Source of the DNA: a virus
Virus record (IMG/VR): IMGVR_UViG_3300042473_001368
Reading direction: 5' to 3' (one strand)
Length of the DNA stretch: 64,000 bases
The stretch's first letter is position 1; every line of letters starts with the position of its first letter. A program made the translations under genes and the position numbers. Shown here one piece after another: positions 7,868-41,904 of the stretch. The notes under the pieces were generated by a model. That model was not told the origin of the DNA. It did not search any database and worked only from the letters and a program-made list of their open reading frames with translations.

Positions 7868-7872
7868 AACTT

Positions 7873-8106: not shown

Positions 8107-8110
8107 GACT

Positions 8111-8443: not shown

Positions 8444-8445
8444 TT

Positions 8446-9210: not shown

Positions 9211-9234
9211 CGAACTACAATATAATAAAAACAT

Positions 9235-9621: not shown

Positions 9622-9628
9622 CCCTCCT

Positions 9629-9835: not shown

Positions 9836-9868
9836 AATAACTAAAAGGAACTACTGTATAATATAATT

Positions 9869-10420: not shown

Positions 10421-10431
10421 AAGAAACTACT

Positions 10432-10968
10432 ATGAAAATATTTTGGGACATTGACGAGACACTGATTCATTCTCGTGTTTACATTGACAGTAAACATAAG
10501 CACACATTCGTCGTTGACGTTTATGACGAACTCTACTACACATGCGTGCGACCCTGCTCCAATGACTTGATTAACTATAGTCGAGAATTGGTTGGTGCAG
10601 ATAATGTTTACATCTTAACTGCAGCGGCTGAGTTATATGCGCAGCGTATTAGTAAGAAAGCTGATTGGGGCTTTGCCGAGGATCATATCATTGGTCGGGA
10701 AACTATTGAACGCTATAGCATTAATATCCCAAGTTTGTATGGCAGCAGCACGTATGTATCAGAGCATCCATTAGCTCATCCTGATAATGTCTTGATTGAC
10801 AACTTGATGCCAGAGTGGAACAATGAAAAGACATCGTTGATGCGCATTAATCCTAAGACAAACTATTGCAAAGTTGATGATTATATAGGCTATAATTTGG
10901 AAGAAGACATCTTTAGAGATAATATTAAACACTTTTTGAAAACGAGATATGAGAACAAAACAATTTGA
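10432..10968 (+). CDS. HAD-superfamily (NIF/FCP1-like) phosphatase
   Basis: N-terminal WDIDETLIHS (DxDxT), VRP, LIDN. Confidence 0.75.
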   Translation: MKIFWDIDETLIHSRVYIDSKHKHTFVVDVYDELYYTCVRPCSNDLINYSRELVGADNVYILTAAAELYAQRISKKADWGFAEDHIIGRETIERYSINIPSLYGSSTYVSEHPLAHPDNVLIDNLMPEWNNEKTSLMRINPKTNYCKVDDYIGYNLEEDIFRDNIKHFLKTRYENKTI

Positions 10969-11245
10969 ATTGAGTAACGGTGACTTAGCTAATGGCGAGT
11001 CAATTGAAGAGATGATTAAAACTCTTGAGAGCCTTAACAAACGAGCAAAGGAGCTAGGAGCAATTGATACATCTGTCGATTTTTATCGAGGAGACTATGG
11101 CTATGTTGAAATTTCAGCAACCCGATACATGACACCTGAAGAGGTAGCAAAAGCTGAAGCAGACGATGCAGTCAGAAACCAAAGACAGCTTGACTTTGAG
11201 CGTAGACAATACGAAGCTCTTAGAGCAAAATTCGAAAAGCAATAA
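10949..11245 (+). CDS. Hypothetical protein
   Basis: Coupled ORF. Confidence 0.65.
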   Translation: MRTKQFELSNGDLANGESIEEMIKTLESLNKRAKELGAIDTSVDFYRGDYGYVEISATRYMTPEEVAKAEADDAVRNQRQLDFERRQYEALRAKFEKQ

Positions 11246-11275
11246 CGAACTCTAATATAATTAAGGACAGCAAAT

Positions 11276-11431
11276 ATGAAACTACTACAAAAAATTAAAA
11301 ACGTATTCACTCGCCGTCAATCAGTTTATGGTGCTAAGATCTTTACGCAACGTTCTTGGCTCGATCGTCAAGTAGACGACGCAATCTATAAGCGCGAGAT
11401 GATGCGCGGCGTTGGACCAGCTATCAAATAA
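11276..11431 (+). CDS. Small hypothetical protein (51 aa)
   Basis: Between motifs 11244 and 11454. Confidence 0.55.
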   Translation: MKLLQKIKNVFTRRQSVYGAKIFTQRSWLDRQVDDAIYKREMMRGVGPAIK

Positions 11432-11479
11432 CAAAACAGTTAATTGAAAACAAAACGAACTACATTATAATTAAAACAT

Positions 11480-12454
11480 ATGAAAGAGAAAATTACTCAT
11501 ATCACTGACGAACAAAAAGCAAAAATGCCACAGTATGTGGATAGGTGGATCAAGACCGGTACTAATACTGATCGACTCGATCCAGTCCGTACCGCGAAGA
11601 CAATTGAGAACTACCGTAAGCTTATTGGTAAGCCTGTTGATGTTCCTTTGATTATCCTCGATAACCCTCTTGAAGCGTGGGCGGCTTGCCATCTCCTTAG
11701 TAACTTCGGAGTGAGCTTTGAGAACCTTAATGCAGAGCTTGCAGAGGTTTTCAATGGTAACCCTAAAGGCTATGAGATTCCTCGTGCTCGACTGCCATGG
11801 CAATGCGGTTCGTTCTTTGTATCGACCTTCTCCTTCTATGACTATATGTTTGAAGAGCTGGGCGTTGAGATCGACGCAGAGCTTTACGCGAAGTATAAAG
11901 TCTGGGAATCGACTTCTGAGCTTGGCTGTATCTATCCTTTGGATGAGTATACTATTGTCTCTCAGAAACCAACTGAGATTCATTTGAACGAAGCTCGTGT
12001 GCTGCATCGCGATGGTGGACCTGCTATTTCTTATGCTGGTATGGGTAACCTTAAGATCTATTGCTTGAATGGTGTTACTGTTCCAGAATATATCGCGGTG
12101 ACTCCTGAAGAGAAACTCGATCTTGAATACTACAAGACTATCGAGAACGCTGACGTCAAAGCTGAGTTTGTTCGCAAAGCTGGCATTGAACGCTTCAAAG
12201 AACTTGGCAAATTGGTCGATGACTATACCAAGTATGCTGGAGCCGAATATGAACTCTGGCAGAAGAGTCAATATGAAATCTGGGATATGAGCGCGATCTT
12301 CGATGGTCTCGACTATGCTCCTTATTTGATGATGACAAATCTCACTACAGGTATTTATCATTTCGAGGGAGTTAGTCCAGCTTGTCGTACTCTTAAAGAT
12401 GCAATCAAGGAACGCTTAGGCGGACGTGATCTTATCATTAAAGCTATTGCGTAA
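11480..12454 (+). CDS. DUF6745-like phage protein
   Basis: LHRDGGPAISY...NGVTVP...IENADVKAEFVRKAGIERF. Confidence 0.7.
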   Translation: MKEKITHITDEQKAKMPQYVDRWIKTGTNTDRLDPVRTAKTIENYRKLIGKPVDVPLIILDNPLEAWAACHLLSNFGVSFENLNAELAEVFNGNPKGYEIPRARLPWQCGSFFVSTFSFYDYMFEELGVEIDAELYAKYKVWESTSELGCIYPLDEYTIVSQKPTEIHLNEARVLHRDGGPAISYAGMGNLKIYCLNGVTVPEYIAVTPEEKLDLEYYKTIENADVKAEFVRKAGIERFKELGKLVDDYTKYAGAEYELWQKSQYEIWDMSAIFDGLDYAPYLMMTNLTTGIYHFEGVSPACRTLKDAIKERLGGRDLIIKAIA

Positions 12455-13595
12455 GCTTTAGCTTTGATTCGAGAATAGCTTCGATATTGTCGAAATCATA
12501 GTATGGAATTCTAACGAGTTCGATATTATGGTCTCGACAATATCTGTTTTTGCGTTGGTCGCGTTCTTGCGTTTCTTCGAAGGCTTTTTCTCCACCAAAA
12601 AACTTGATAGGTTCGAAGTGTTGCTTACCGTCGAATTCTATCATTAAGTTAAGAGAAGGTACAAAGAAATCAAAATAGTATCTATAGCTATCATCCTTAA
12701 TATATTTTTGAATTTTGTATTCACAGTTTAAAGAGTTGAGATACTTTGAAATCCTCGTCTCGCCTTGAGAGTTGCAGCACGCGACACAACCACTACCTCT
12801 CAAATGCCCACCAGGCTTTTGTTGAAACTCGCCATGAACAGGGCAGATAATATTGACGGGTGTAATACTGTTAATGTAATATACGTTTTCGTAATTGTAG
12901 AAATTATCATGAATTACGCTCGACCGCGCCACAAAACTCTTTTGTAGTTTCTTGTTATTATTTGCTCGTACTCGTTCAATGTTGCACTCTTCGCAACCAC
13001 CAAACCCTCTCGATAATATAGTAGCCTTTGTCTCAAAGTACTTGTTGTGCTCAAGACACTTTACCCGTACGGTAGATACACTGTTAGCGTACCCTGATTC
13101 GGAAAGATCAAACTTATTATCTCCCCAGACGCTCTTAATAATATTCTCCCATTCTACTTTCCGCTTCGCGTGATTAGATTCAGAATAATTTTTATTTGGT
13201 TTGCATTTTTTGCAACCTCTTCCTAATGTATAGTGCGCAGAGTATGGCATCTTAAATAACCCATGGTCAGGGCAGATTATATCAACAGGCGTATTAGCAT
13301 TCTTATACACAACTTTCGAATAATCGTATCTATCGCCATGCTTGTCTCTAAACTTTCCTAAAACATAATCATGGCTATGAGTTATTGGCGCACTATTTTT
13401 AATCTTACCGCATGCCTGACAACCAAACCCTCTTAAATGAGCGCCTGCTCGTTGTTTAAATTCGCCATGCAAAGAACACACAGCTGTTATTATTGTATCG
13501 CTATTAACATAGTTGATGTTAACGTATTCATACACGCCTTTATGTACTTTTGTTGCTTTTTCGATAAAGCTCTCGTTTGTATGTCTTACAGGCAT
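12444..13595 (-). mobile_element. Putative homing endonuclease: repeated YDYS..Y...IIC..HG.F...H..G.GC Zn modules plus C-terminal PD-(D/E)XK (Vsr/DUF559-like) nuclease
   Basis: Several CxxHG...GCxxC repeats; FDFF...IEFDGKQHF...DQRKNRYC...LVRIPY; late promoter ACTAAATA upstream on - strand. Confidence 0.85.
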
Positions 13596-13728
13596 ATAAA
13601 TTATTTAGTCTACGCACCGTACTTTTCTACGATTAACCGTAGATATCGTAACGAACTACTATATAATTAACTCGTAAGCATATGATGTGCTTGCATAATT
13701 TAACTCCTAGCCTATAATAAATACGAAT

Positions 13729-14073
13729 ATGAAATTAAATCAAAATGAATGTGTGCTTCACGGTGAAGCAATGATTATGCCTGCTTCTCTTCCAGCTGAT
13801 GCTGTAGAGATCAAGCCATCAAACGATAATTACCACATTATCGCAGACAGTGAAACTACTGGCAACCACCATGTCATCGACACGGTTCCTGGTACTCGCT
13901 TCTTCAAGAGCGGTAGTCGTACCTTTATGACTAACGAGAAAGAGACTCGTGTTCGCTGCGTGCATCCAGCTCGTCACAATGCGATTGCGTTGAGCCCTGG
14001 TACATATGAAGTTGGCGAGAATCAACTTGAGTATGACCACTTCGCTCAGAACCTACGTAAGGTTCGCGACTAA
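13729..14073 (+). CDS. Conserved phage protein usually paired with DUF6745 (HGE...SETTGNHH...HNAI.L.PG.Y)
   Basis: Motif pattern and position. Confidence 0.65.
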   Translation: MKLNQNECVLHGEAMIMPASLPADAVEIKPSNDNYHIIADSETTGNHHVIDTVPGTRFFKSGSRTFMTNEKETRVRCVHPARHNAIALSPGTYEVGENQLEYDHFAQNLRKVRD

Positions 14074-14096
14074 TATATTTGTAGTGTGTGTAGTAA

Positions 14097-14133
14097 ATAG
14101 GGGAGAGTCTTTCGGCTCTTCCCTTATTTTTTT
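14097..14133 (+). terminator. Intrinsic terminator
   Basis: GGGAGAG/CTCTTCC stem followed by a T-run. Confidence 0.75.
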
Positions 14134-14148
14134 GTAGAGAGCATAAAT

Positions 14149-15162
14149 ATGCTTATGCGTAGAAACGATTTCAAACAGTTAACAAGCCTCTATGAGAGCG
14201 TATATGTTGTTAGCGAAGCAAACTTAGCAGATGACAAAACTCTTATGGCAGCTCTTGACGAGGCTTTAGGTGAAAAAGGTATTACTGGAAACTCTCCTAT
14301 CGAAAAATGGTTTAAGACACAGTACCTTAAATGGTTCAAATCTCCTGAGGGCGATGATAAGAAAAATGTATCACAGCACCAATATGCTGAAGGCGAGCCA
14401 GAGTGGATGTCGAGAGAAGGTATTGTAGATTTCGGTGGCTTCTCGCAGAGTGAGAAGCAGAAACTTTCTCATATGATCGACTACTTCCTCGCGCTTGATG
14501 ATAGAGAGATCGCAACGATTTACAAAGAACCATACGGCGTCATCGTTAATAAGGTTGCTGAGTGGGATCGTAGATTAGCTAAGAAGATGGAGAAATCAGA
14601 AATCTCTCCGCTTGTCGAAGGCACTGACTTTAAAGTTATTCGTAAGACCCAAGACGAAACAGGAGCACCGATGAAGTGGGTTAAGCTTCTAACACCTGCA
14701 GCATTTAAGTTTGAAGGTAATTCAATGGGACACTGTGTAGGTGGTTATAACCCATCTAAGAAAGGTCTCGATATCATCTCTCTATATGATGAAGATAACT
14801 TGCCGCATGTTACTATCGAGATTCAAAACAAAGAAATAAGACAGATTAAAGGTAAGCAAAACGCTGCCCCTACATCTACATATCAGCCGCCTTGCTACGA
14901 GTTTGTTAAATATCTTGTTGACAGAGATGGATACAAGGTTACTGGTGACGGTGATAACATTGGTATGGCGCATTTTGAAAGTGAGTATTACTTCCGCGAT
15001 ACACAAGAATGGCAAGATATCTTTACTAATAAGATCGTGCCTATGCAACAGAGAGCGTTTGATGAAATCAAGAAGCGCATTAAAGTTATTGCTACAGAAG
15101 GCTATGAGTATGCTTCAAGCTATATGTATAACCTTCTCAAAGAAAAGCGCTCAATCTGGTAA
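14149..15162 (+). CDS. PcfJ-like domain protein, late promoter
   Basis: EGNSMGHCVGGY...SLYD....PHVTIE...QIKGKQN; CATAAATA upstream. Confidence 0.7.
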   Translation: MLMRRNDFKQLTSLYESVYVVSEANLADDKTLMAALDEALGEKGITGNSPIEKWFKTQYLKWFKSPEGDDKKNVSQHQYAEGEPEWMSREGIVDFGGFSQSEKQKLSHMIDYFLALDDREIATIYKEPYGVIVNKVAEWDRRLAKKMEKSEISPLVEGTDFKVIRKTQDETGAPMKWVKLLTPAAFKFEGNSMGHCVGGYNPSKKGLDIISLYDEDNLPHVTIEIQNKEIRQIKGKQNAAPTSTYQPPCYEFVKYLVDRDGYKVTGDGDNIGMAHFESEYYFRDTQEWQDIFTNKIVPMQQRAFDEIKKRIKVIATEGYEYASSYMYNLLKEKRSIW

Positions 15163-15164
15163 AC

Positions 15165-15788
15165 ATGTCTAAGAAAATTATAGAAGGTTATGTTAACTTG
15201 ACCGGGTACTACCTCGAAGAACTTCCCGATTTCTTTAAGGATGTAAGTGTAGAAGGCGAGTTTTACTGTAACAAAAATCAATTAACTACGCTAGAAGGCT
15301 CGCCTCAAAGCGTAGGCGATCATTTTATATGTACTAGAAACCGTCTTATATCACTTAAAGGAGCTCCACAAAGAGTAGACGGTGATTTTTTATGCGGAGA
15401 TAATCGCCTAACCTCACTTGAAGGAGTTCCACTGATAATAGGTGGTGATTTTTCCTGTAATAGAAATCAATTAACTACACTCGAAGGCATATCTAAGAGT
15501 ACTATAGGTGGCGGTTTTTTTTGCGGAGGTAATCAACTAACATCGCTTGAAGGATCACCACCGGATATCAATGAATCGTTTAACTGTGAGTCAAATCGTC
15601 TTACCTCTCTCAAAGGAGGACCAGGGTATGTTGGAGGATCATTTATTTGTAGTAATAATAAACTTACTTCTCTGGAAGGTGCACCGCGTGTAGTTGATGG
15701 TGATTTCTATTGCAAAAATAATGACGTAAGGTTTACAGTAAAACAAGTAAGATCAGTGTGCAGGGTAGAAGGTGATATATATGTCTAA
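15165..15788 (+). CDS. Leucine-rich-repeat-like protein (~22-aa LTSLEGAP..VGG.F.C..N repeats)
   Basis: About 7 repeats. Confidence 0.85.
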   Translation: MSKKIIEGYVNLTGYYLEELPDFFKDVSVEGEFYCNKNQLTTLEGSPQSVGDHFICTRNRLISLKGAPQRVDGDFLCGDNRLTSLEGVPLIIGGDFSCNRNQLTTLEGISKSTIGGGFFCGGNQLTSLEGSPPDINESFNCESNRLTSLKGGPGYVGGSFICSNNKLTSLEGAPRVVDGDFYCKNNDVRFTVKQVRSVCRVEGDIYV

Positions 15789-16308
15789 GAAAGTTATAGA
15801 AGGGAATGTAGATCTCAGTGATATTTGGGTGGACGAGCTTCCAGATTTCCTCGCTGTTGATGAGCTACAAGGCAATCTTAGAATTGATCAATATAAATAC
15901 CCTTCACTTAGATCTCTTAAAAACTCTCCGATCTTGGTAAACGGTACAGTAGTAATCAATTCTACCAATATTAGAGATCTTCAAGGGTCACCTCAAATGA
16001 TATTAGGCAATTTTGAACTAGATGCAAACACGGAGCTAGCTTCTCTCAAAGGTGCACCTCGTTATATCGCAGGTATTTTTTCTGTGCAGTTTTCTGAGCA
16101 GCTTAGATCTTTGGATCATGGATGGCCTGAGAAGGTTAAAGTGGGTAGAGGGTTCCAATTGCACTATTCTGGAGAAATGGATGCGTTTAGAGTAGATGAT
16201 GTACTCAAATATTACGATGTTGATCCTAAGGATATCTTTATAAACGACGCATACGAGGATCCAGATATGTATGACCTGGAAGATGGAGAGTACATTAACG
16301 AGTTGTAG
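15781..16308 (+). CDS. Degenerate LRR-like paralog
   Basis: MSKKVIEG, SLKNSP, DLQGSP, SLKGAP; 8-nt overlap ATGTCTAA. Confidence 0.8.
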   Translation: MSKKVIEGNVDLSDIWVDELPDFLAVDELQGNLRIDQYKYPSLRSLKNSPILVNGTVVINSTNIRDLQGSPQMILGNFELDANTELASLKGAPRYIAGIFSVQFSEQLRSLDHGWPEKVKVGRGFQLHYSGEMDAFRVDDVLKYYDVDPKDIFINDAYEDPDMYDLEDGEYINEL

Positions 16309-16402
16309 TTGAACTCTATGTGAACTACTCTATAATATCTTTATGAATGCTGAAGGAGACCCTGGGAATGCCAAGGTCTCTTGAAGTTTATGAAGATAGG
16401 TA

Positions 16403-17019
16403 GTGATGAGAGAAGAAACATTAGAATCCAAGAGACGCGGCATAAGTGAAGCTAATATTGTGACGAGTGATCTTATATTAGCCACTCTTCGGACAGACAG
16501 TGAATGGCTTGCAAATGTCTTAAGTGAAATGGTTAGCGGTGTAACGCAATATACACGGCTAGCAGGAAGCGAGCTACAAAATCATATAGCGCAGACACTG
16601 CAAAATTATTATGAATATGGCAAATAGAGAGCTACAGGAAGAAGTAATTAGTAACAGCATAATCACAGCAATTATAGCAGATATGGATGCTCTTGCCGCA
16701 GAGCATCCTGACGAGTCACTTGTGATTCACAATATTTTTATACCAGTTAACAATCAGGTCGGCTCAAGATTTCTAGCAGAAATTGAAGATAAAGTCTGGA
16801 ACTATAGATATGGAAGACCTAAAGTTAAATAAGCGGCCACGGACTACTGAGTTTGAATCGTTTTATGATATGGTTCGCGCCGTACGTGATAACCTCTCCT
16901 GCGATCTCGACGACCCTAATTGGTGGCAAGATGTATACACACTTTCGCAAATTGAGGCTGGTGTGCATAAAGTTACAGGTGCTATACGGTGGGAGCTTTC
17001 CTTAGATAAAACGAACTAG
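16403..17019 (+). CDS. Three coupled small ORFs (16403..16627, 16611..16832, 16810..17019)
   Basis: First junction TATGAATATGG is a YEY/MNM variant. Confidence 0.6.
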
Positions 17020-17046
17020 CGTATAATAGATATACACTGCAGGACT

Positions 17047-19089
17047 ATGCATATTAATATTTACGACGAACTACTTACTCGCTGCGGAAACTCTGTGTAT
17101 AGTTCTATATGGTGGCCTGTAGCAACCAACGTAAGAGATAAAATTCCTTCGGAAATGTGGGATTTTTATAAAACTACTATTATACGAGATGGTACAACTG
17201 GCTCATTAAGCAGAGAAGTAGATAATGAGGTAGGAAATTATGAATATTGAAACTATAATTGATTGTGATATCGGTCACAGATGTCGTACTGCATTTCGTC
17301 AAGAGCTTGAGAATATTTGCAAGGTCAACTTTGATGGCCATGAGTATTACGGCCTTTATATTGAGCTGACATATGATATTGACACAGTTACTGACAGCCT
17401 ATATTTTAATTTTGAAGACACCGCAGATAGCTATTACTATGATTGATTTAGGTGAAGAGATAAGATACAAGATACAACTCTCAGCTCGTGACGCGATTAC
17501 TTCAAAATTGATAGCAGTTAAGCATATGACATTTTCTGGTTATGGCATGGCTGATGATGAGATGTGGAATGAGATTATCTCGCCAATGACACGTCTTGCT
17601 ACTGAGCTAAAGGTATGGGGAGAGATTGGACGATATGAATATTGAACGCAAAATATATTATGACCCATGCAACTATAGTTGGGGTGATATACAAACAAAC
17701 GCATTAAAACAAATTCGTAATACAAGAAGCATCGAGGATATCATGGTTGTGGTCTCGGGTGTTGAAGAGCTATGCGATGAAGTGAGAATGCAAAGCACGC
17801 TTGAACTTTTCATTGCTAATCACAATCCTGGTAATATACTAACAACAGAAAATGAAGAAGAACATCCACGGTGAGATTGAAGGCGAGTTGATGGATAATA
17901 CTCAAGATGCATTATGCGAATTGAGAAGCAGTGTATTTGGCAATGGCACATATATGAATAATCCCGTTCATATGCACTATCACGATACAATAAACAATCA
18001 GCTATTTCTACAAACAGTATGCACCATTAAACAAAAGCTTAATGCAGAATTTTTCAGTAGAGACATTGAAGGCATAGCAAAAATTATGAAACAAGCGCAT
18101 GAAAGATTACAACGACCGCGTATTAGCAGAAGAAATCGCTGATTTCGATAAATTCAGAAAAATCACTACAGCGATCTATAGTGCTTGGAACGATAGAGCA
18201 GATTATCGTGTATCTAATGCTGTGCTTGTAGGGGTATTTGATGGTGTGAATCCGATACAACTTCTTTCATGCGTTGGTGCTAGTCTGAAATATTATGAAT
18301 ATTGAAAGTAAAATAGATTTTCATATGTGGGCTTCAATTCGAGGCCGTCTGCGCGACTCTTTGGAGAGTTTCATTGACCGGGATGTTGATTATTATGCTC
18401 AGCACGATGTGATCGATGAAGTCTTTGAGCCTGTGTGTCAATCTGCTGATGACAGTGTGAAGAATAGTGTGAGAACAGCAATAGAAGAATATGAATATTG
18501 AAAAGAAAATAGTTGATTCTGTGGTGGATGCTGCGTGCAATTCTGTGTATGGTGCTGTGTATACCAATGTATGTAATTCTGTATCTACTAATGCTAGACA
18601 TCTCGGTTGGTTTTCTGTATATAGTGCTGTGTGGAATCCAGTAGAAGATACTGTTAGTAGCAAAATAAACGAATATGAATACTGAAAAGGAAATATATGA
18701 CTCAGTTCATGGCTCAGTTTGGAGCTCGGTTTATAGCTCAGTTCATGGCTCAGTTATTAACTCAGTTCATGACTCAGTTCATGGTTCAGTTTATGGCTCA
18801 GTTTATATCTCAGTTTATGACTCAATTTATGGCTCAATTGACAATGCAATAAACGGATATGAATATTAAAAACGAATTAACAAACTCATGCAATAGTGTG
18901 TCAATGAAAGTAGAATTAGATCTTTATAATAGCGTAAGTAATTGCGCTACACTTACATCAGTGACAACTGTTAAGCTTGCTCTTGTGCATGATCTTTGCA
19001 AGGTAATGAATTATGCATCGCCGATTAGTGTAAAACACGCTGTAGATAGTGAAATAGAACAATATAGATACAATGCAATTGGGTCCTGA
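17047..19089 (+). CDS. MNIE/EYEY chain 2: ten overlapping small ORFs (17047..17250, 17240..17446, 17439..17645, 17635..17874, 17852..18142, 18099..18305, 18295..18501, 18491..18685, 18675..18869, 18859..19089)
   Basis: Mostly 11-nt ATGAATA(T/C)T(G/A)A overlaps; headed by motif 17010. Confidence 0.75.
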
Positions 19090-19110
19090 AAGACTAAATA
19101 GAGCTATAAG

Positions 19111-29047: not shown

Positions 29048-29142
29048 CTCTTAAAAATGAAACGGGGGAGCGCATAGCAAAACACAGTTATCAGCTCCTC
29101 GTCGAGCTAAAACGAACCTCGATATAATTACGTACACGCAAT

Positions 29143-31588
29143 ATGAAATCAACACTCCTATTTCTACAACGGTTTACTCCGCCAAAAGGTTATATGATCA
29201 ACCGCGAGGCGACTCTCGCTGAGCGCAAAGCAATCGGCCGCAAAGCGCTCGTTGATAGACTCGCGCCTGAGATCTGGAACATGCTCTGGGAACTCAATGA
29301 TTACACAACTCTTTCTCACTTCGGAAGTATCACTCATTGGAGCTACAAAGATGGCAAAGTAGAAGCTTGGGTAAATTGCGGTGCTGTTCACTACTATGGT
29401 TTTCAAGAATTCAAAGATATGCTGCTCGACTATGAGCCTACCTATGTGTTACGAATGCATAAGCTCTGCGCGAAGAATCTACGCGATCAAAAGGCTCTAC
29501 GCGGCAATGCTCGTAAGGAAGAAGCAATGAAACATCTTCGCGAGGTTCAGGTGAAGCCCACAGAACGTAAAGCGACCAAGCCGGTCAAGATCAAGATCGA
29601 CCTTGAGATCGAAGCTTGGCTCTGAGTGCATAACGAACTCCGATACAATGGGCGTATGAAAAAGAGCCGCAAATTGTCAAAGTCTTTTGACTATAGCCCC
29701 ATCGCGCTTAGAGCGTTAACGCGCCACAGTTATGCTCCTCCTGTGAAGAAGTTCAAGGATAAGAAGCATGACGCTAAGAAGTACGGGTGCCGCTCGAAGC
29801 AAAACGAACTCTGATACAATACCTCAGTGTATAATACCAACAACAAAACATCTGAAGAGCTTTGGGCGATCACTTCTGAAACAGGAGCGATATTGTGGAG
29901 CCGTGGCGGCTCCAGCTCTACACCACGGCTTATGGTTTATGAATCTGAAAAGAAAGCTGAAGCTGCTCTCAAAAGTTCCTGGACAAAGCAAGTTCATAAT
30001 GCTGATGCAGTCCAGATTCGTAAGATCTATTCCGCTCCGCAAAACGAACTCCATTATATTTAACGCACACAGCATATGAAAGACTTCTTCCCACCACAAT
30101 TTGATCGCAACAAAAACGGCTCACTCTTTGATCGCGGTAGCGCGGATGCTTACTACCGTCGCGCTTTTGAACCGCATTGGTATCCAGAAGGTACTTACAA
30201 TGGCGAGAAGATTACGAACTTGACCTCGGAAGAGATCGAGGAATACCGCGCAGGGTTCAAATATCAAGAATCGACTGGCGTCTTCAAAGAATATTAATCA
30301 AAACGAACTCCGATATAATTAACGCACACAGCATATGAAATTACCAACACGTACAAATATTAAGAAGATCCTTAACCGCTACGACCTTTCTCGCAGCTAC
30401 ACGGACAAGCGAGCGAATGGAAACCGGATCAAGATCTCGACACGGATGAGCGAAGAATCAATAGAGCTCATTCAAAAGGAACTTTCAAAAGAGTTTCCTC
30501 ATCTTGACATCGTTGTCAAACTTATTGATTCAAAGTTCACGTCTTCCGGTGGTTCACGAATCTGCACTGCAATTTACTCTTCCGTCAAGCTCAGCTAAAC
30601 GAACTTCATTATAATTAACTTGTAACCAACAACAAACACATTAACATTATGCCATTTACTACAATCGTCGCTCCTGAACAAGTCCGTCAACAATTCACCG
30701 CTCTGCGCGATAAGCTCAAAGCTACCGATAAGCTGCTGATGCAAGCTTGCTGGGATACAGTCCAAGAGCTGCTCTTCACTGCAATGTCTGAAGAAGATCT
30801 TGCGAACCGAATCGATAAGCTTCGTGCTGATCAAAAGGTAGTTAAGGCTGCTCTCAAGCCTGCTGCTAAGAAAGCTCCAAAGAAGGAGGCTAAGAAAGAA
30901 GCTCCTAAAGCCAAGAAGGAGAAAGCGCCTAAAGCTAAGAAGGAGAAGGAAGTTCCTTCTAAGCCAGTAGCTAAGAAGTCCAAGAAGAAACTGCTCAAAG
31001 AAGCACCGCTTGTCCTTACTGAAGGAGAGCGCATCATCGCTGAGGACGACGATGTTCCTTGCTTCGTCTCGGTAGGCTAAGTTATGCGGCCCTGAGCATT
31101 TGGCGTAAAAAGGCTCAAAGCTTTACGAACTCTAATATAATTAGGCGATGCAAGTAGAACTAAACAAACTGATTGACGACCTGAGTGAAAAGTTTTGGAA
31201 CAATTGTACCTTTTCAAAGCCAGCGGCTAATGCGAGGGAAAGTGTTCTCCAAACAATCAAAGCATATTTCATTAAGAAAGATCTTGTGATCGTTTCACGT
31301 GTTGAATATGACCGGCTCTTGAAAGAAATTGAAAACATAAGAGAGTCAGAAAACGGAACGCCTTACTAAAACGAACTTCAATATAATATTGGTATGATGA
31401 ACAACACTACACGCAACACTACTACTCGTTCAAACTGGTCTGTCAAATTTGGAGCTGTAAAGTCCGTAGACGCTTCCGAAGTGATCTTCAAAGCAACCGT
31501 AAAGGTCAATCCTTATCTGCGCTCTAAGACCTACTTGAAGCGTCCAGGCATCTCGATGAAGGGTAAAACGAACGCAGAAGCTTACTAA
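29143..31588 (+). CDS. Eight motif-headed single-gene cassettes (29143..29625, 29656..29814, 29827..30063, 30076..30297, 30335..30598, 30649..31080, 31148..31369, 31394..31588)
   Basis: Each preceded by AACGAAC-type motif; 30649..31080 has a Lys/Ala/Pro-rich histone-H1-like tract. Confidence 0.75.
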
Positions 31589-31606
31589 CTTGACTAAATA
31601 ACGTCA

Positions 31607-32017
31607 ATGAAAAGAGATATCGACTTACTCAACGAAGCGTACAACAAAGTGCGCAAACAATCACAGCTCACTGAAGGCAGAAAGGATGGTAACTTTGACG
31701 ATTACGAAACTGATCAAATGAGACGTTTTAACGATCCGAATTACGATGACGAAGACGATGAACCATTGTCTGACTATGATGCAGGCAAGGTGCGCGTCGG
31801 AGACGTCAAAGCATGGGAAGCTCTCTTAGCTGCTGTTGAAGGTGATGAGAACATCGATGCAGATAGATTCCTACAGATGTGGGCGCAATCAACAAAGCAG
31901 AACCCTGCTGGTCTTGATCTCGATAGATGCATCAATGACTTCGCATCTGCTTCTGGTATCGGTCTCGCTTTCGATCCTACAGACAATACTCTGTATGTGG
32001 ACGATTATTACGATTGA
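31607..32017 (+). CDS. Acidic late protein (possible internal virion protein)
   Basis: ACTAAATA upstream; MKRDIDLLNEAY...LTE. Confidence 0.7.
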   Translation: MKRDIDLLNEAYNKVRKQSQLTEGRKDGNFDDYETDQMRRFNDPNYDDEDDEPLSDYDAGKVRVGDVKAWEALLAAVEGDENIDADRFLQMWAQSTKQNPAGLDLDRCINDFASASGIGLAFDPTDNTLYVDDYYD

Positions 32018-32046
32018 TCATTCGCTCAGTACAAAACGGTCAAATT

Positions 32047-32074
32047 GGAACCCTCAGTAAATTCTGAGGGTTCC
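32047..32074 (+). terminator. Stem-loop just before motif 32082
   Basis: GGAACCCTCAG/CTGAGGGTTCC 11-bp stem. Confidence 0.6.
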
Positions 32075-32105
32075 GCGTCTAAACGAACTCCGATATAATT
32101 TAGGT

Positions 32106-32561
32106 ATGCTTACGACCACCATCGCAACTTCGATTCAATACGGAAACTACAAAGCGCTTATGAGCCGCATAGAGCAGATCAAAGCACTCATGAAGCACTA
32201 CGCTAAAGCGTTCAAAGATGAATTTGATTACAATCCAAAGGTGGTTGTTCATATGCGCCCCATTAAGGGCCGAGTTGCTGGGAGAGCGTTCTGCAATAAC
32301 CCTCTCATTGAGATTGACCCTCGTTACAAGTTCCGTGAAATCATCGAGACCATCGCTCACGAGCTTACTCACTCAGAGCAATACAAACAAGGTCGATTGA
32401 AGCACCTTGTAGGTAATCAATCGATCTGGGAGAGCCGTACGATGAGCCGAGGAACTACATACTCGCAATACTTAGCGCTTCCTTGGGAGGTTGAAGCTCG
32501 TAAACGCGCTAAGGAGTTCGTTGACAAGTACTTCACTCACAACTACCTCGACGTTGCTTAA
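32106..32561 (+). CDS. Zincin-like HExxH metallopeptidase
   Basis: TIAHELTHSEQY...PWEVEAR. Confidence 0.8.
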   Translation: MLTTTIATSIQYGNYKALMSRIEQIKALMKHYAKAFKDEFDYNPKVVVHMRPIKGRVAGRAFCNNPLIEIDPRYKFREIIETIAHELTHSEQYKQGRLKHLVGNQSIWESRTMSRGTTYSQYLALPWEVEARKRAKEFVDKYFTHNYLDVA

Positions 32562-32589
32562 GCTTAACGAACTCCAATATAATAACATT

Positions 32590-32944
32590 ATGATCAAAGC
32601 AATACTACTCGCAACCGTTACGCTCACCGCACTGTTCCTTCTCATTCAGATCTTCTTTGGCTGGCAGATCGCTGCTGCCTTCGTTGGCGGCTGCGTCGTC
32701 ACCGATCTGTTCTGGGGCTTGGCGTTGCGTAAGAGACTCGCAACGCTGGATGCGCAATAATGAACTTCTGTATAATACTGGTATGACAACATATTGGGAA
32801 CTAGAAAAAGAGTTGATTGAACAGCATGGTCTTGAGAAGGTGAATGAAGCACTTGCTCAGCTTGAAGAGGATCTTGGTCAGAATGGCTTTGATGCTTACA
32901 GAAGTGGAGAGCATGATCTACTTCTCAACTACTTCGAGCAATAA
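32590..32944 (+). CDS. Two small cassette ORFs (32590..32760 membrane; 32783..32944)
   Basis: Each follows a motif copy or variant. Confidence 0.65.
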
Positions 32945-33633
32945 GGAATGAAGCTCGATCGCTTTTCTCGAGCTCTTCTTTTTGCCTCTTTAACATTGCG
33001 TATATGCTCTTCGGTTTGTTTTCTACCTTTGAGTGCTTCCGCCTGTTTCCGTACATGCTCTCGGGTTTGTTTTCTACCTTTCAAAGCTTCGCGTATTTTC
33101 TGCTTATGTTCTTCTGACTTTGGAACTCCCTTCATCGCACAGCAACCAGCAGGAGCTTGCGACTTACGTAAATTGCGCTCTGTTGAATGCTTCTTACCCT
33201 TTAACGCGATACTTATCTTGCGCTTCGTTTCTTCTGATTGATTGCCACCAGCAATACTTCGACGGTAGCTCTTGTTGATAAACTTGTGTTGTAAATCACT
33301 AGTCAAAACCTTCACCAGTACCTTACTCTCCCACAACGACGCTGCTTCAGCTGTATCAAACGTTTTACGAATTTGAATGATGTCAGGCTCACCATATAAT
33401 GTACGGAACTCAGCTACGGTTGCTGATGATGTGAAGTAGGTTACCCAAAAGTCATCAGGATGACAACCTGTGCTGTGTAAGCACTTATATTTTCTTGAGT
33501 ATCTTACTCCGTAATAAAACTTATTAAGTTTAGACCAGCCTATCAAATAGCAATAGGGACGATAAATAGTATTATGCTGTTGGTTTGTTTTCATGACAAT
33601 AGATTGGTTGGGATGTAGGAGTCCGCGAACCAT
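32929..33633 (-). mobile_element. GIY-YIG-like (Seg-type) homing endonuclease with NUMOD3 repeats
   Basis: YCYLIGW...YYGVRY...CHPDDFW..YFTSS; SEETKRKIS, SEEHKQKIREALKG; ACTAAATA upstream on - strand. Confidence 0.85.
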
Positions 33634-33692
33634 ATAATTATATTTAGTCTCTTAGTGTTGTTTTGCATAATGAACTTCGGTATAATTGAGGT

Positions 33693-34358
33693 ATGGAAAA
33701 TAAAGAACATACATCAACCAAGTACGTTTCAGTAAATTACAGCTACCTCGCTGGTGTCCTTACTTCTAAGCTCCTCATGATTGCAGGAGAGCTCTTAAAG
33801 CAGGGCTTACTGAAGGACGACAAGCTCGACGAAGCAATAGCGATCGCCCTCAAAGCGATCGCTGATGCAGAGGAATCTGAGCGCAATTACACTCAAGGTT
33901 AACGAACTTCGATACAATATTATTATGACAGACAAAGACGACGCCTACGCTGCTATTGCCATTCTCGTTGCTTGCTTCGCCGGCATCTGCATCTTCATGA
34001 CCATCTTAACGATTGTTGTGGCTGCTTGCAAATGGATCGCTGGAGTGCTCTAAATCAGAGCTTATTGATTCCCGCTGGGAGCTTTGGGGCTCTCCTATTC
34101 TTTACCAAAATGAGTACAGACACTAATGAAACGATTTATGAAAGGGCTAAAGCGTATGAGGACATGGATGATGATGACCGTGCTTTCGCTATTCACTCTG
34201 CGCGATACATCCTCGAGGAGGTTAGCATGGAGAGGATGGCTGAGATCAGTGGGCTACCACTTGGAGTCATCGCCGCTGCCTTCGACAACATCTTCATCGA
34301 CAAGGACACAGTTCGCACCAAGGTGCCAAAAGGACAGCGCGGACCAAGGCGCCGATAA
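33693..34358 (+). CDS. Three small ORFs (33693..33902, 33925..34053 membrane, 34110..34358)
   Basis: First two are motif-headed. Confidence 0.65.
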
Positions 34359-34390
34359 CGAACTTTGATACAATTACAGTAGACAGACAC

Positions 34391-34481
34391 AAAGGATTTG
34401 ATGTCGCTCATGGTAGGGAAGCAGGGAGGTCTGCCATGAGTGCAATAGCACATAGTCGCCCTGATGCCGACATCATCCTTT
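34391..34481 (+). ncRNA. Candidate pseudoknotted small RNA (overlaps a possible 20-aa ORF 34436..34498)
   Basis: Stems AAAGGAT/ATCCTTT, GATGTCG/CGACATC, CTCATGGTAG/CTGCCATGAG; loop CAGGG can pair with CCCTG; own motif promoter 34357. Confidence 0.5.
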
Positions 34482-34486
34482 ATCTT

Positions 34487-36814
34487 AACGAACTCTGATA
34501 CAATTAGGTATGACCGCTACTGCAGAACCAATCAATGGAGCAACCTATAACAAAGCAGCTCTCGCTGTCTTTTCGAGTCTTTTGATTCACCCTGACTGGG
34601 AGCTCGAAGATCACCTCGCGTACTTGCAACACGAAGTGTACATCGACATCGAGACTCCTATTACCTATTGCTACTGGCCAGATGGGCCAAAGACAGAGCC
34701 TCTCAGAAAGTTCGTTAAATCGTGGTTGAATCGCATAGAGCGTCTCAAAGAGGTTTGCCACGAAATCATGGTAAGCAAGACGGTTAACGAACTCTGATAC
34801 AATATCATTATGCAGACATTCAAACTTCATCGCGAATACATCAGACAATTCATCGATTTCCTCGGCAAGCTTGAGCGCGGTGAACAGATCTCTTACGATT
34901 GGTTCTCTAGCCATCTATCAGATCTTCGTAGGCTCCTTGATGGCTATAACTTTCAATTCGCAGATAATACTATTCAAGTTGAAGACGAAGACCTGCAACA
35001 CATCCTTTGGTTCTTTGAGCGCTTTGACTACTCAGATGATATCGAGGACGGTGATCGCGTTATCTTCGACATCCATACTATGTCGGCTGATGCATTCAAA
35101 GCAATGCGCGTGTACCTCGATTGCCTTAACGAACTCTGATACAATTAGGTATGAACGAAAGCACATTCAACCCAGACATCGATTACAAAGCAACAAACGA
35201 TTGCTCTTATGCAAGCCCTTACAGAGCTTTGCGAAATGACGCGACAATCAGAGTTTCTAAGAAGTTAGCGCGAGAAATTATTCTGCACAATTACACAGTT
35301 GATCGCCTTGATAAAGTTCATAACCTCCAATTGAAGCATATTGGCCTTGGTGTATACGAGGTAAAATTGATACATGATTGCGCTAGCATCAATGGTAAAG
35401 ATGTCGGTCGTAATCTCATTGTTGCATCGTTCTATTGAAACAACAGCACAACGAACTCTGATACAATTACATTATGACAAAGACTTATCCATTCTGGAAA
35501 ATTGCAACTCCCCGCCGCATGATGCTTGGCTATTGCGTGCATGAGATCAAAGTGACACACCTTGGCAAAGGCATCTATGGTTGCAGAGTATTTACCGATG
35601 GCGTGCTCAATGCTGAGAATCGCTGCAAAGGTAAAGAGAACATTCGCTTAGCTTGTCGCGACCTACTGCGCTGGGAGTCTAAGTTAGGCAACATCAGCGC
35701 CTTTGCTCAATCATCTCGCCACCGTCAATAACGAACTCTGATACAATATTACAGAATGACCGAATATCTCGATTCTAAAGGTAATCCTCTTGAAGTAGGC
35801 CACGAGTATGCTCTTGTCACTTACTGGGAAGAGAGCTTCACACCCAACCCTGCTAGTGAGTGGATCAAAGCTGTTTGGACAGGTACTAGCTTTGTGGATG
35901 CAGATGGCTGCAGTTGGACTGAATGGCTTGAGAAGCCTGGTGTGGTTTCTCCTGATGTTGCGTACTAAACGAACTCTGATACAATTAGGTATGATCACGG
36001 AAGCACTCACACGCACATTCAAGCCAACAGAAAGCAACTACCCTTACATCATTCCTGCTCTGCGTAATGGCATGGAGGTAAAGGTGACAAAGAAGATCGC
36101 TAAGGAGTTTGCGTTGGCTGAGCCTGGAATCATTGTTAAGGGTACTGTCCGCTATATTGAGTTTGCTCCAGCTGATCTCGGCCTCGTCGTAATGACTCTT
36201 AAAAACGAACTCTGATACAATTACATTATGCAACGACCGATTATTACTACCGCTTCAGATGGCCGCACCTACACTTGGGATAAATCAGACACCGCATACA
36301 TTGGAGTAGAAACTTCTTGTGGGTGTTATGGAGCTGAGCTACGCGATGATGGTCGCTGGTCTCCTATTAACGTCGAAGGTTGTCACTTCCAAGTCTGGAG
36401 TGATGAAGCGTATGACACTCCAGAAGAAGCATGTGAGCGTTCACATGAAATCTTCACCTGATTAACGAACTCTGATACAATTAAACAGTAACCAAAATAA
36501 ACTAGATGTCAATCACACTTCACATTCCGCAATTAGTTATTACCGTGCTGAGCTGGGCTACCTTGGCTCTTGTTATCTTATTGATCATTACCTGGACGAA
36601 GCGTTTAGCTCTTCATCGCATCTCAGAGGTCAAAGCATTATCAAAAATGTATCTCTGGTTGCTGTTTACGAATGACTTCAAAGACGAGATGGTCCGTAAC
36701 CTCTTTGACAGATACATCAGGAATTTGATGAACCGCGATGACGAGGCCAAGCTCGTATATGATCTAAAGAACATCCTTGATAAGGTCATCAAGAGCAACG
36801 AACTCTAATACAAT
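34487..36814 (+). repeat. Exact 18-nt direct repeat AACGAACTCTGATACAAT x8 (plus one 1-mismatch copy), spaced 236-342 nt
   Basis: 34487, 34786, 35128, 35450, 35730, 35968, 36204, 36464; 36797 variant; also 29803. Confidence 0.95.
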
Positions 36815-37068
36815 ATCAATATATGGAAGTAACTCAATACATGAAGGACACTGGCGTGCTTGTTGAACCTGTTGAATGCGTTCTGGAAGGCATCGATGGT
36901 AATGCATTCGCTCTGATCGGTCATTGGTCGAAGTGTGCCCGTAAAGCTGGTCGTACCGCAGATGAGATCGCTATCGTTCAGCACGAGGCGATGGCCAATG
37001 ACTACGATCACTTAGTAGGTACTCTGGCACGCCACTGTGCTGACTACTGGGAAGATGTTCCCTTTTAA
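34510..37068 (+). CDS. Nine single-gene cassettes (34510..34797, 34810..35139, 35151..35438, 35474..35731, 35756..35968, 35991..36215, 36228..36461, 36506..36808, 36823..37068)
   Basis: One ORF per repeat interval; four end in NEL-stop encoded by the repeat. Confidence 0.8.
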
Positions 37069-37088
37069 TTTCAATGTGTGTGGTTGAC

Positions 37089-37124
37089 AGACTCACCGGT
37101 GCTCAGAGAGATGCCGGTGAGTCT
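37089..37124. terminator. Hairpin ending the cassette array
   Basis: AGACTCACCGG/CCGGTGAGTCT 11-bp stem. Confidence 0.6.
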
Positions 37125-37241
37125 CTGCATCTACCGCGTTATTTCAGAACCGGGTTCTCTAGAGAGAGCGGGTCTCTGAGCATGTAAGCGTTCGAGAATG
37201 TCTATAGCTGAGAGCTTTTAGGAAACGTTTTTAGGCCATGG

Positions 37242-37390
37242 CTCCTATAAATTTTTTTCGCAAATCTCCCAACTCTCCTTATAAAAATTTTTTTTGCTAT
37301 TCTCCCAGACTCCTTATAAAAATTTTTTTCGCAAATCTCGGAATTCCTATAAAATTTTTTTTTTTGCAAATTTTCTATACTCTCTTATAA
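37242..37390. repeat. Four to five imperfect ~34-nt direct repeats CTCCT(T)ATAAAAATTTTTTT(C)GCAAAT
   Basis: TATAAA cores at 37246, 37280, 37315, 37348 and partial TATAA at 37386; non-coding. Confidence 0.85.
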
Positions 37391-37412
37391 CGAACTCTGA
37401 TATAATTACAAT

Positions 37413-37671: not shown

Positions 37672-38445
37672 ATGAAAAGTCTAATTATCGGCAGCACCGC
37701 CATCAAACACTGGTATCCTGATTTTAAGCGAGAGCCAAAGGATCTTGACTTGATCGATACTGAAACATATATGAGTACAAAGGAAGTTGAACGTCTTTGG
37801 ATCCATCAGTTTCAGGAGCTTCTTGATATTAATATTGATGACCGCTATCTCGATCCAAACAGTCTGCTTACACTCAAGCTATCTCACCTTGGCTGGGATA
37901 TTCTCTGGGAGAAGCATGTAGCGGATGTCGAGTTCCTATTCAGTAAAGGCTGCATGGTCGACCGGGGGTTATACGAGAGACTTGTTGCGGGCTGGATACG
38001 AAAGCATGGTAAGAAATGGGCATCTCTTAAAGGTAAAGACTCTACTACATTTTTTGAAGATGCTGTTGCACGTAAATACAATCATGATAGTATTCATGAA
38101 ATTGTAGCTATCTATGATAAGCCCCTCTACGAACAACTCATTCACGAAGGTGTACAGTGTAGCGAAAAAGGATTTGAAAAACTCTCTTATGAGGATAAAA
38201 TATATCTTGTAAAGGAGGAGGTGTGGGTGACTGCATTAGAGCGGTATCTCATTCCCAATGACTTTAAATACAGTGCTACTCTCGCTTATCAACAAGCGCT
38301 TAAGAAGCTTGCAACAACCATGTCTAGCGGCTGGTTCAAGTTTTTTATTCTCAGTAACATTCATATCCTGAGAAAATGCCGTGACAGATCCTATATTGAT
38401 AAATTTAAAACTGCTGAATCTCAAAACCTAATCAAACTAAACTAA
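37672..38445 (+). CDS. Putative nucleotidyltransferase-like phage protein
   Basis: IIGSTAIKHWYPDF.REPKDLDL (GS...DxD). Confidence 0.65.
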   Translation: MKSLIIGSTAIKHWYPDFKREPKDLDLIDTETYMSTKEVERLWIHQFQELLDINIDDRYLDPNSLLTLKLSHLGWDILWEKHVADVEFLFSKGCMVDRGLYERLVAGWIRKHGKKWASLKGKDSTTFFEDAVARKYNHDSIHEIVAIYDKPLYEQLIHEGVQCSEKGFEKLSYEDKIYLVKEEVWVTALERYLIPNDFKYSATLAYQQALKKLATTMSSGWFKFFILSNIHILRKCRDRSYIDKFKTAESQNLIKLN

Positions 38446-38990: not shown

Positions 38991-39026
38991 AAAAAGCTCT
39001 CTGCATTTACTTGCGGAGAGCTTTTT
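38991..39026. terminator. Bidirectional terminator at strand convergence
   Basis: AAAAAGCTCTCTGCA/TGCGGAGAGCTTTTT. Confidence 0.85.
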
Positions 39027-41875: not shown

Positions 41876-41904
41876 TTCAAAACGAACTTCACTATAATTA
41901 GTAT

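Follow-up and report, generated by a model that had tools for sequence, protein, structure and literature searches.

Promoter-early and promoter-middle stem-loops (PeSLs and PmSLs) have been described in RB49/phi1, T4/PST and KVP40/nt-1 (Arbiol et al. 2010, PMC2839356; Comeau et al. 2014, PMC4122927). A PeSL is about 50-70 bp long and combines an AT-rich UP region, a -35 and a -10 element, a stem-loop terminator and a Shine-Dalgarno (SD) sequence (PMC2839356, PMC4122927). Here we describe a shorter element, a co-oriented repeat of 18-24 bp that precedes gene after gene in a 64,000-nucleotide (nt) stretch of viral DNA, IMG/VR record IMGVR_UViG_3300042473_001368, hereafter the window. An initial annotation had drawn attention to the repeat in the interval 29143-37068. 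We read it as the standard pre-late (early or middle) promoter of this phage, one that would give rise to leaderless mRNAs and whose copies would double as recombination joints, and we place the probability of this reading at roughly 0.7.

The Z-element is the closest described counterpart of the promoter part of the repeat. It consists of AACCT or AACAT at positions -22 to -18, as in the T7 A1 and A2 promoters, contacts the beta-prime zipper and substitutes for the -35 element if the -10 element is strong (Yuzenkova et al. 2011, PMC3173786). Leaderless genes in which the -10 region adjoins the open reading frame (ORF) are known from Deinococcus-Thermus (Zhong et al. 2025, PMC12340547).

The source of the window is an uncultured T4-like phage. 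A gp23-type major capsid protein (MCP) gene lies at 59682-61142 (-), and further genes of the window encode both ribonucleotide reductase (RNR) subunits, an ATP-dependent DNA ligase and QueF. Identity of the MCP to its counterparts in cultured cyanomyophages is only about 32%, and it is 64-82% with many IMG/VR contigs.

Sequence and distribution of the repeat

Across the whole window, the 18-mer AACGAACTCTGATACAAT has 24 matches at three or fewer mismatches, all on the + strand, with 0.08 expected, and the pattern ACGAAC-N5-TAnAnT occurs in 43 copies on the + strand and one on the - strand. Conservation is confined to about 21 nt (cAT-AACGAAC-TyyrA-TAtAAT-ta). The 3' hexamer, TAtAAT, is a consensus -10 element; with this hexamer at -12 to -7, the box AACGAAC falls at -24 to -18, and its seven bases are invariant across the 43 copies. 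TG is present at -15/-14 in 11 of them. In the aligned copies, no information content was found at the -35 position or anywhere upstream of -27.

Thirty-two strict copies (AACGAAC-N5-TAnAnT) with a mean spacing of 422 nt, together with two degenerate ones, form a dense array at 24302-37406, and all array copies are co-oriented with their genes. Twenty of the strict copies fall within 29143-37068. Another 11 copies lie outside the array, from 890 to 41881, one of them before the DNA ligase gene, so the motif also serves a core gene. What had been annotated as a discrete system at 29-37 kb is better described as a stretch of a general pre-late promoter that recurs 43 times over 41 kb.

The architecture given in the initial annotation for 29143-37068 was largely borne out. 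Its estimate of about 25 units agrees with our count, which comprises 23 ORFs on the + strand, a non-coding unit and, on the - strand, a homing endonuclease. The eight identical 18-mers reported at 236-342-nt intervals are indeed consecutive (34487-36464, at intervals of 299, 342, 322, 280, 238, 236 and 260 nt), and a ninth exact copy was found at 29803. Subtypes cluster locally, as had been stated: neighbouring copies differ at 2.38 positions, compared with 3.28 +/- 0.19 in permuted arrays (p < 1e-4). The claim that the repeat supplies the stop codon of upstream genes also holds. Of the three frames of the repeat, two contain a stop (an initial TAA, and TGA or TAA at +9), and five called ORFs, or seven by a liberal count, end in a repeat-encoded NEL-stop (ends at 29814, 34797, 35139, 36215 and 36808); about 11 further ORFs stop at a TAA overlapping the first A's of the repeat.

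The genes between the repeats are a different matter. An all-versus-all blastp of about 40 array ORFs returned only two weak pairs (41% and 27% identity), and mean column identity was 8%. The array ORFs are therefore not paralogous, which excludes tandem gene amplification; only the promoters look homogenised. Amplification and homogenisation had been proposed side by side as sources of the subtype clusters, and the second alone survives, for the promoters. None of 34 cassette proteins scored above the Pfam threshold, and all 11 PHROG matches among them were to families of unknown function. Nothing in these results shows the early host-takeover or anti-defence role that the initial annotation had proposed.

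Secondary structure is a minor feature of the repeat. A fold of -12 kcal/mol or lower lies upstream of 12 of the 43 copies, with convincing hairpins in only 5-6 of these, and the eight-copy exact run shows nothing stronger upstream than weak folds. Structure over the motif-spanning segment is below the control level.

A predicted leaderless geometry

In 27 of the 43 copies, the start codon follows the hexamer at a distance of 5-8 nt, most often 6 nt (n=15) or 8 nt (n=8) and more rarely 5 nt (n=3) or 7 nt (n=1). The two degenerate copies (AAGGAAC... and AATGAAC...) likewise lie 6 nt from an ATG. The ATGs that follow the repeat are the first start codons after a stop, and both protein and nucleotide homology with relatives begins at them. 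With the hexamer at -12 to -7, the A of the ATG comes to lie at +1, so the mRNAs should be leaderless; judged by this geometry, transcripts of the units with 5-8-nt spacers should start on or next to the start codon. The first 50 nt 3' of the motif are unusually unstructured (-3.6 versus -6.9 kcal/mol, p = 4e-8), which fits the 5' ends of leaderless mRNAs. An SD-like site was found in just two of 42 large ORFs.

The same geometry recurs in another promoter class. In front of late and structural genes, and of the homing endonuclease genes, the T4 late-promoter sequence (TATAAATA or ACTAAATA) is found just as close to the ATG. ATAAATA-N4-9-ATG junctions number 14, compared with 0.3 in the control. 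Because the late-type promoters, including those before all homing endonucleases, abut the ATG, the leaderless design spans temporal classes. Late-type sequences at 5-9 nt from an ATG were seen on both strands, at 1534, 12444-13595 (-), 19111, 28208-28834 (-), 31607 and 32929-33633 (-), among others.

This design offers an explanation for the array. In the absence of an SD sequence, efficient translation would be limited to the 5'-terminal cistron of a transcript. As SD sites are almost lacking and late genes share this geometry, each gene would require a 5' end of its own to be translated, and hence its own promoter. Because there are neither internal terminators nor gaps between genes, each upstream ORF continues into the promoter that follows, which yields the NEL-stop endings. 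The initial annotation had recognized a repeat that behaves as a promoter, one per gene, and consensus and position of the hexamer point the same way; it had missed the main reason, namely the predicted leaderless mRNAs, with the ATG at 5-8 nt in 27 of 43 copies, and the near absence of SD sites.

Other promoter types are inconspicuous in this region. Between 22 and 42 kb, neither canonical -35/-10 promoters (42 found, 43 expected) nor terminators are enriched, and a search for the T4-early-type pattern GTTTAC-N17-TAnAnT gave no convincing copies in the window. Two specialized promoter types were considered for the repeat itself and rejected: its GAAC...TCTGA resembles a promoter of the sigma-E kind, of the extracytoplasmic function sigma factors, with the wrong spacing, and the GG/GC of a sigma-54 promoter is missing.

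Recognition of the box

The AACGAAC box lies at the position of the Z-element, and we propose that the beta-prime zipper of RNA polymerase would read it there in place of a -35 element. By this analogy, the zipper is the more likely reader, ahead of a phage-encoded factor. The foremost rival holds that the box is recognized not by the host core enzyme but by a lineage-specific phage protein, be it an activator, a sigma-appropriator of the MotA/AsiA kind or a phage sigma factor. Such a protein would be compatible with everything else in our reading; we consider it unlikely, though well worth weighing.

The box itself speaks on both sides. Its seven bases are the same in all 43 copies, and in relatives the layout recurs with different boxes, TAAAAACTAGAA-TACAAT-N6-ATG and TAAACACTGCAC-TAnAAT-N6-ATG, so that the box varies by sub-lineage (AACGAAC, AAAAAC, AAACAC) while the geometry is constant. 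Both observations suit a dedicated reader. However, the core ACT-N4-TAnAAT, at the Z-element position, is common to all boxes, and the lineage-specific flanks could stem from copy-and-paste spread rather than from recognition. Foreign AACGAAC promoters have moreover remained intact in G001, a relative with the TAAAAACTAGAA box. The genes driven by the repeat include replication-type ones (DNA ligase and a DnaB/KaiC-like ATPase), and an ordinary -35/-10 early class is not visible in the window, though a second relative, G002, has such promoters; these points again favour a phage reader. Five relatives, including one that is 89% complete, gave no hit to the MotA C-terminal domain (MotCF, PF09158), which counts only weakly against a MotA-like protein, as the records are incomplete and the control genomes could not score.

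Exchange of promoter-gene units among relatives

Searches of the phage collection by megablast with the array and by tblastn with a large 981-amino-acid (aa) window ORF gave no match, and the KaiC-like ATPase as query recovered no relatives among viral contigs. A metagenome scan was anchored on the conserved DUF7275/DUF7277 gene downstream of the array (37672..38445, +). It yielded short contigs only, including L231 and L230; in the latter, the sequence upstream of the anchor is only 133 nt long. In further genomes that have the AACGAAC box, the copies counted on the two strands number 25:1, 0:27, 9:16 and 14:6. The comparisons below concern G002, which has the same AACGAAC box as the window, G001, with 45 copies of its own box in 40 kb (spacer of 6 nt in 33 of the 45), and L231.

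Of 40 array ORFs, only about 10 have a counterpart in G002; these share 76-92% identity, and their order is scrambled. For RNR, the identity between G002 and the window is 66%, and the MCP match reaches only 37%. Since G002 is not a genome-wide close relative, the close similarity of the shared cassettes in itself indicates exchange. Genes 31148 and 24682 lie 6.5 kb apart in the window, but their G002 homologues are neighbours, and window-G002 homology blocks begin at an ATG and end within or just past the next repeat. The gene at 35474-35731 is preceded by an exact 18-mer (35450..35467, +; spacer 6) and has homologues in G002 (79%) and G001 (82%). Together with the identical 18-mer, it has a different downstream neighbour in each of the three, the window, G001 and G002. 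Between two identical copies, the window has three additional cassettes compared with G002; a leader homologous to that of the copy at 36464 directly follows the 35474 homologue in G002.

Around the anchor gene, L231 and the window share 93-98% identity, and L231 has two indels that start at a repeat. After the stop of its homologue of gene 36823 and before the non-coding spacer at 37069..37388, two extra motif-led genes start exactly at a repeat. Its identity with the window stops just after the hexamer of the copy at 37389; here the window has an additional gene, 37413-37652, whereas L231 continues straight into DUF7275. A short direct repeat unrelated to the motif (ataactttcaa) flanks one cassette inserted in L231.

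In G001, an island at 28224-28959 comprises homologues of window genes 37413 (92% nt identity) and 35474 (85% nt identity) and a third gene. Protein identities between G001 and the window are lower in the core, with 66% for the MCP, 68% for RNR and 42% for the ATPase. The island retains two AACGAAC promoters among more than 40 of the resident type, and at its right edge AACGAACTCTGATATAAT directly abuts the resident promoter TAAAAACTAGAATACAAT. Judging from these identities and junctions, the island is a lateral transfer of cassettes along with their promoters. Thus, in the comparison with relatives that the initial annotation had called for, gene order is scrambled and breakpoints lie at the repeat or at an ATG, which is not the pattern it had named as refuting its proposal.

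Further details of promoter turnover were noted in both genomes. At 28440-28470 of G001, the island promoter between the 37413 and 35474 homologues is cut down to ...ACAATtacattATG, and the upstream ORF reads through into the next gene in another frame, which looks like decay of a foreign promoter. G002 has σ70-looking GTTTAC-N17-TATAAT promoters with T-rich upstream sequence, some of them 6 nt from an ATG, as well as a repeated leadered promoter of about 55 bp (GGTGTACAAATCGCGTGATTTGTGGTAYTAT...). Examples of such promoters in L088/G002 lie at L088 4697-4741 and 11378-11422 and upstream of the G002 homologues of window genes 29656 and 30076; the σ70-looking leadered promoter has no match in the window. 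As the ~55-bp promoter drives orthologues of window genes that have AACGAAC promoters, the promoter class of an orthologous gene is swappable.

We propose that dozens of co-oriented, identical joints of 18-24 bp would serve as crossover or template-switch points, at which promoter-plus-ORF modules could be inserted, deleted and exchanged, even between lineages with different boxes. The homing endonucleases in the array would probably contribute double-strand breaks.

The repeats could alternatively be promoters only, with the turnover of genes due to illegitimate recombination, repair after homing-endonuclease cleavage and lateral transfer, and with selection retaining the products in which genes are intact. 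We regard this as quite unlikely, although several observations accommodate it. Two homing endonucleases lie within the array, the direct repeat around the L231 cassette is not the motif, and several events have one side only, or finish at a stop codon or an ATG instead of within the repeat. The presence of a repeat at nearly every array junction leaves no power to tell the two models apart by breakpoint position. Nevertheless, identity frequently ends within a few bases of the edge of the 18-mer, and one gene with its 18-mer has three different neighbours. In the run of eight consecutive copies, identity is 100% and extends to the positions that differ among other copies, and subtypes cluster, which points to copying or conversion between neighbours. 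PeSL recombination and mini-circles have also been shown experimentally in T4-type phages (PMC2839356).

Less probable explanations

The repeat might also act in the RNA of polycistronic transcripts, either as an endoribonuclease processing site or as an SD-independent signal for internal initiation. As there are no terminators between genes, read-through RNAs containing the repeat must exist, and where SD sequences are absent, promoterless genes would need some other start signal. We nevertheless judge this explanation very improbable. The 3' half of the repeat matches the sigma-70 -10 hexamer perfectly and lies at its canonical distance of 6-7 nt to the start point, and late genes have TATAAATA, a known DNA element, in the same position. 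The repeat also precedes a tRNA-like RNA and a non-coding unit, in which there is nothing to translate, and Rfam gave no match at the repeat.

A dedicated integron-like capture system with the repeat as recombinase site, or a tandemly amplified family, would account for the regular repeat-and-spacer look, the co-oriented units and the very high gene turnover, but it is hardly credible given that no recombinase or integrase family was matched by profile libraries in the window ORFs screened (most of those of at least 150 aa plus the 34 array cassettes, which falls short of a full screen), that the repeat is not palindromic and no attC-like hairpin was seen, that the motif also precedes core genes far outside the array, and that the cassette proteins are mutually unrelated except for two weak paralogue pairs. 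The initial annotation had itself seen neither an integrase nor attC hairpins, and this stands for the ORFs screened, with hairpins before a minority of copies. Its proposal of a dedicated system for cassette capture does not: no capture machinery was shown, and recombination at short repeats aided by homing endonucleases would suffice. A resemblance to an array of clustered regularly interspaced short palindromic repeats (CRISPR) was likewise set aside, because the spacers are coding genes of 130-1800 nt.

Limits and wider reading

Several points weigh against reading the repeat as a leaderless promoter that doubles as a joint. Promoter activity and start site are predicted from consensus and geometry only. 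Not every unit is leaderless: leaders of 13-33 nt follow 12 copies, and in two of these AGGA or GGAG lies at SD distance. The 7-9 invariant bases exceed what the loose Z-element needs and the boxes are lineage-specific, and both facts fit a lineage-specific protein reader equally well. As nearly every gene boundary in the array has a repeat, breakpoints at repeats are statistically inseparable from breakpoints selected for at gene boundaries. Several events have a repeat at one end only, and 18-24 bp is short for homologous recombination.

A more far-reaching interpretation extends to the whole clade, and we offer it tentatively, as something possible rather than probable. This clade of T4-like phages may have abandoned leader- and SD-based operon expression, so that each gene is a self-contained module with a short promoter fused to its start. 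The modules would cover early/middle and late genes, homing endonucleases, a tRNA-like RNA and possibly a small RNA. The pre-late promoter would be a natural, high-information element of a -35-less Z-type read by the core polymerase. With a joint of the same 18 bases throughout, modules could be exchanged within lineages and across those with different boxes, as in the G001 island. Promoter, translation start, stop codon and recombination joint would thus be merged in a single element of 18-24 bp.

If translation is leaderless, each gene needs its own transcription start, which would give a mechanistic reason for promoter-per-gene arrays in hyperplastic regions and thereby link gene-expression strategy to genome plasticity. 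Dozens of near-invariant -35-less copies, together with the alternative boxes of sister lineages, constitute a data set on what the zipper, or a phage factor, reads. The G001 island provides a clean natural case of lateral transfer of promoter plus ORF between diverged T4-like phages. For annotation, gene starts can be called from the promoter in such phages, and SD-based gene finders will misplace them.

Layout of the array and neighbouring genes

Ten dispersed copies precede the array, at 890, 3841, 7509, 9209, 11244, 11454, 13650, 17010, 20661 and 23687 (890..23704, +). The copy at 13650 has no ORF within 60 nt; a short palindrome, aagcatatgatgtgctt, lies downstream of it, and a late-type ATAAATA-N-ATG junction is found at 13729. 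The array opens with CCTCRG-subtype copies at 24302, 24910 and 25190 (24302..25207, +), each followed by ataggagt and an ATG (spacer 8). Among them lies the degenerate copy AAGGAACCTCAATACAAT (24658..24675, +), with an ATG (24682) 6 nt on. Seven copies follow, at 25454, 25725, 26045, 26177, 26783, 27026 and 27281 (25454..27298, +), and the last is the putative promoter of the KaiC/DnaB-like ATPase gene (27315-28211, +).

Two genes of tRNA shape, each about 102 nt long, are located at 25935-26172 (+). ARAGORN calls neither; Rfam gives the first 45 bits, with a 48-nt insert replacing the anticodon/variable region, and the second only 17 bits. The second tRNA-like RNA has the 5' end GCGGG, 7 nt downstream of the copy at 26045, so this RNA may lack a 5' leader as well.

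The array is interrupted by two antisense homing endonuclease genes. The first is an inserted HNH endonuclease gene (28208..28834, -; phrog_655, E 1e-47), and the second is homing-endonuclease-like, with NUMOD3 repeats (32929..33633, -; phrog_314); each has the late-type ACTAAATA near its ATG. Between them, copy AACGAACCTCGATATAAT (29111..29128, +) is separated by a 14-nt CA-rich leader from the gene at 29143-29625. Nine copies, mostly of the CTCCGA/CTYMAA subtype, then lie at 29632, 29803, 30043, 30302, 30598, 31124, 31370, 32082 and 32566 (29632..32583, +), and the exact 18-mer at 29803 (+) leads to a GTG start at 29827 with a spacer of 6 nt. The second promoter class also appears within the array, as a late-type ACTAAATA-N6-ATG junction (31583..31609, +) before the gene at 31607-32017. 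Leaders of 14-16 nt that are CA-rich and SD-less follow several copies, at 26193-26209, 27299-27314, 29129-29142, 30061-30075 and 30320-30334; their sequences are taacacacacaatat, tacatacacacaatat, tacgtacacgcaat and, twice, taacgcacacagcat. CA-rich leaders are known translation enhancers in E. coli.

Downstream of the second endonuclease, the degenerate copy AATGAACTTCGGTATAAT (33669..33686, +) has an ATG (33693) 6 nt on, and copy AACGAACTTCGATACAAT (33901..33918, +) precedes the gene at 33925-34053 with a spacer of 6 nt. Copy AACGAACTTTGATACAAT is followed by a 106-nt unit without an ORF (34357..34486, +). No ORF of at least 25 aa is present at 34375-34486, and the predicted structure of the 106 nt is a long stem that contains two inner hairpins (-34.4 kcal/mol, z -2.5); on this folding model, the unit may be a small-RNA cassette.

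The eight exact 18-mers, all on the + strand, come next. Those at 34487..34504 (spacer 5) and 34786..34803 (spacer 6) precede genes 34510-34797 and 34810-35139, each of which ends with NEL-stop inside the following copy. The copy at 35128..35145 (spacer 5) precedes gene 35151-35438, and the one at 35730..35747 lies 3' of gene 35474-35731. Gene 35991-36215, which again ends with NEL-stop, follows the copy at 35968..35985 (spacer 5), and gene 36228-36461 follows that at 36204..36221 (spacer 6). The last exact copy (36464..36481) is separated by a 24-nt leader, taaacagtaaccaaaa..., from gene 36506-36808. To this gene the next copy, AACGAACTCTAATACAAT (36797..36814, +), supplies NEL-TAA, while itself presumably driving gene 36823-37068. 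A non-coding spacer rich in T-tracts (37069..37388, strand not assigned) separates these units from copy AACGAACTCTGATATAAT (37389..37406, +) and its gene at 37413-37652 (79 aa). The + strand block is closed by a strong terminator-like hairpin of 15 pairs with T-tracts on both sides (38991..39026, +). Beyond it, copy AACGAACTTCACTATAAT (41881..41898, +) precedes the ATP-dependent DNA ligase gene (41905-43023) with a spacer of 6 nt.

Other repetitive genes lie nearby. Two adjacent paralogous genes at 39053-40481 (-), 40% identical, are made of repeats of about 21 aa (...LTSLEGAP...), and related DNA is also present at 15.2-15.8 kb. The number and sequence of these repeats make up the main difference of L230 and L231 from the window. 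At 17047-24093 (+), a family of 61-72-aa proteins with C-termini ...YEY(E/K)Y, multi-copy in G002 too, is linked by the stop/start overlap ATGAATATTGA. These genes have no promoters of their own and look translationally coupled, in contrast to the leaderless units.

Comparison with known systems

The repeat resembles a PeSL in its role and surroundings. In both cases a promoter motif is repeated in hyperplastic regions of T4-like genomes, each copy before an orphan ORF, with the stop of the upstream gene inside or beside the motif; indels and replacements end at the motif, some events are one-sided, and homing endonucleases are a co-factor. The composition is different. The unit in the window is 18-24 bp long and has no -35 element, no AT-rich UP region and no SD sequence in its 5-8-nt spacers; a strong upstream hairpin accompanies merely about 5-6 of 43 copies, and the ATG lies at the predicted start point. 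For PeSLs, mini-circles excised by recombination between neighbouring motifs are known. Of the PeSL analogy drawn in the initial annotation, role, location and motif-ended indels are therefore retained, while the -35/UP, stem-loop and SD parts have no counterpart here. The window element works like a PeSL but is not one.

With the Z-element, the repeat shares an AAC-containing block within -24 to -18, 4-5 bp upstream of a strong -10 element, and a dispensable -35 element; GAACT in the window corresponds to AACCT or AACAT. The published element is loose, has modest effects and was defined on promoters that have a -35 element (PMC3173786). The box in the window has seven invariant bases, lineage-specific flanks and no -35 element whatever, and the match is positional.

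The leaderless genes of Deinococcus-Thermus likewise have a -10 element about 6-7 nt before the ATG, no SD sequence and a predicted start on the start codon. In the window, this arrangement is found in a T4-like phage and in pre-late as well as late promoter classes, and it comes with an additional invariant upstream box and is tied to cassette shuffling. Among phages, middle and late mRNAs of the Thermus phage phiYS40 are reportedly leaderless, as Sevostyanova et al. are said to have found in 2007.

T4 itself reads its late promoters with gp55, gp33 and the sliding clamp, and its middle promoters consist of a MotA box at -30 and a -10 element. The late and structural genes and homing endonucleases of the window have the T4-like late sequence TATAAATA or ACTAAATA, and the AACGAAC class resembles T4 middle promoters in replacing the -35 element by another box, which lies at -24 to -18 rather than at -30. 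T4 transcripts have leaders with SD sites, whereas both promoter classes of the window abut the ATG. Compared with integrons, no recombinase family was detected among the screened window ORFs, and the repeat is non-palindromic with rare hairpins. PeSL-type shuffling and leaderless genes adjacent to a -10 element have each been published before; the advance made here lies in their new combination rather than in a new principle.

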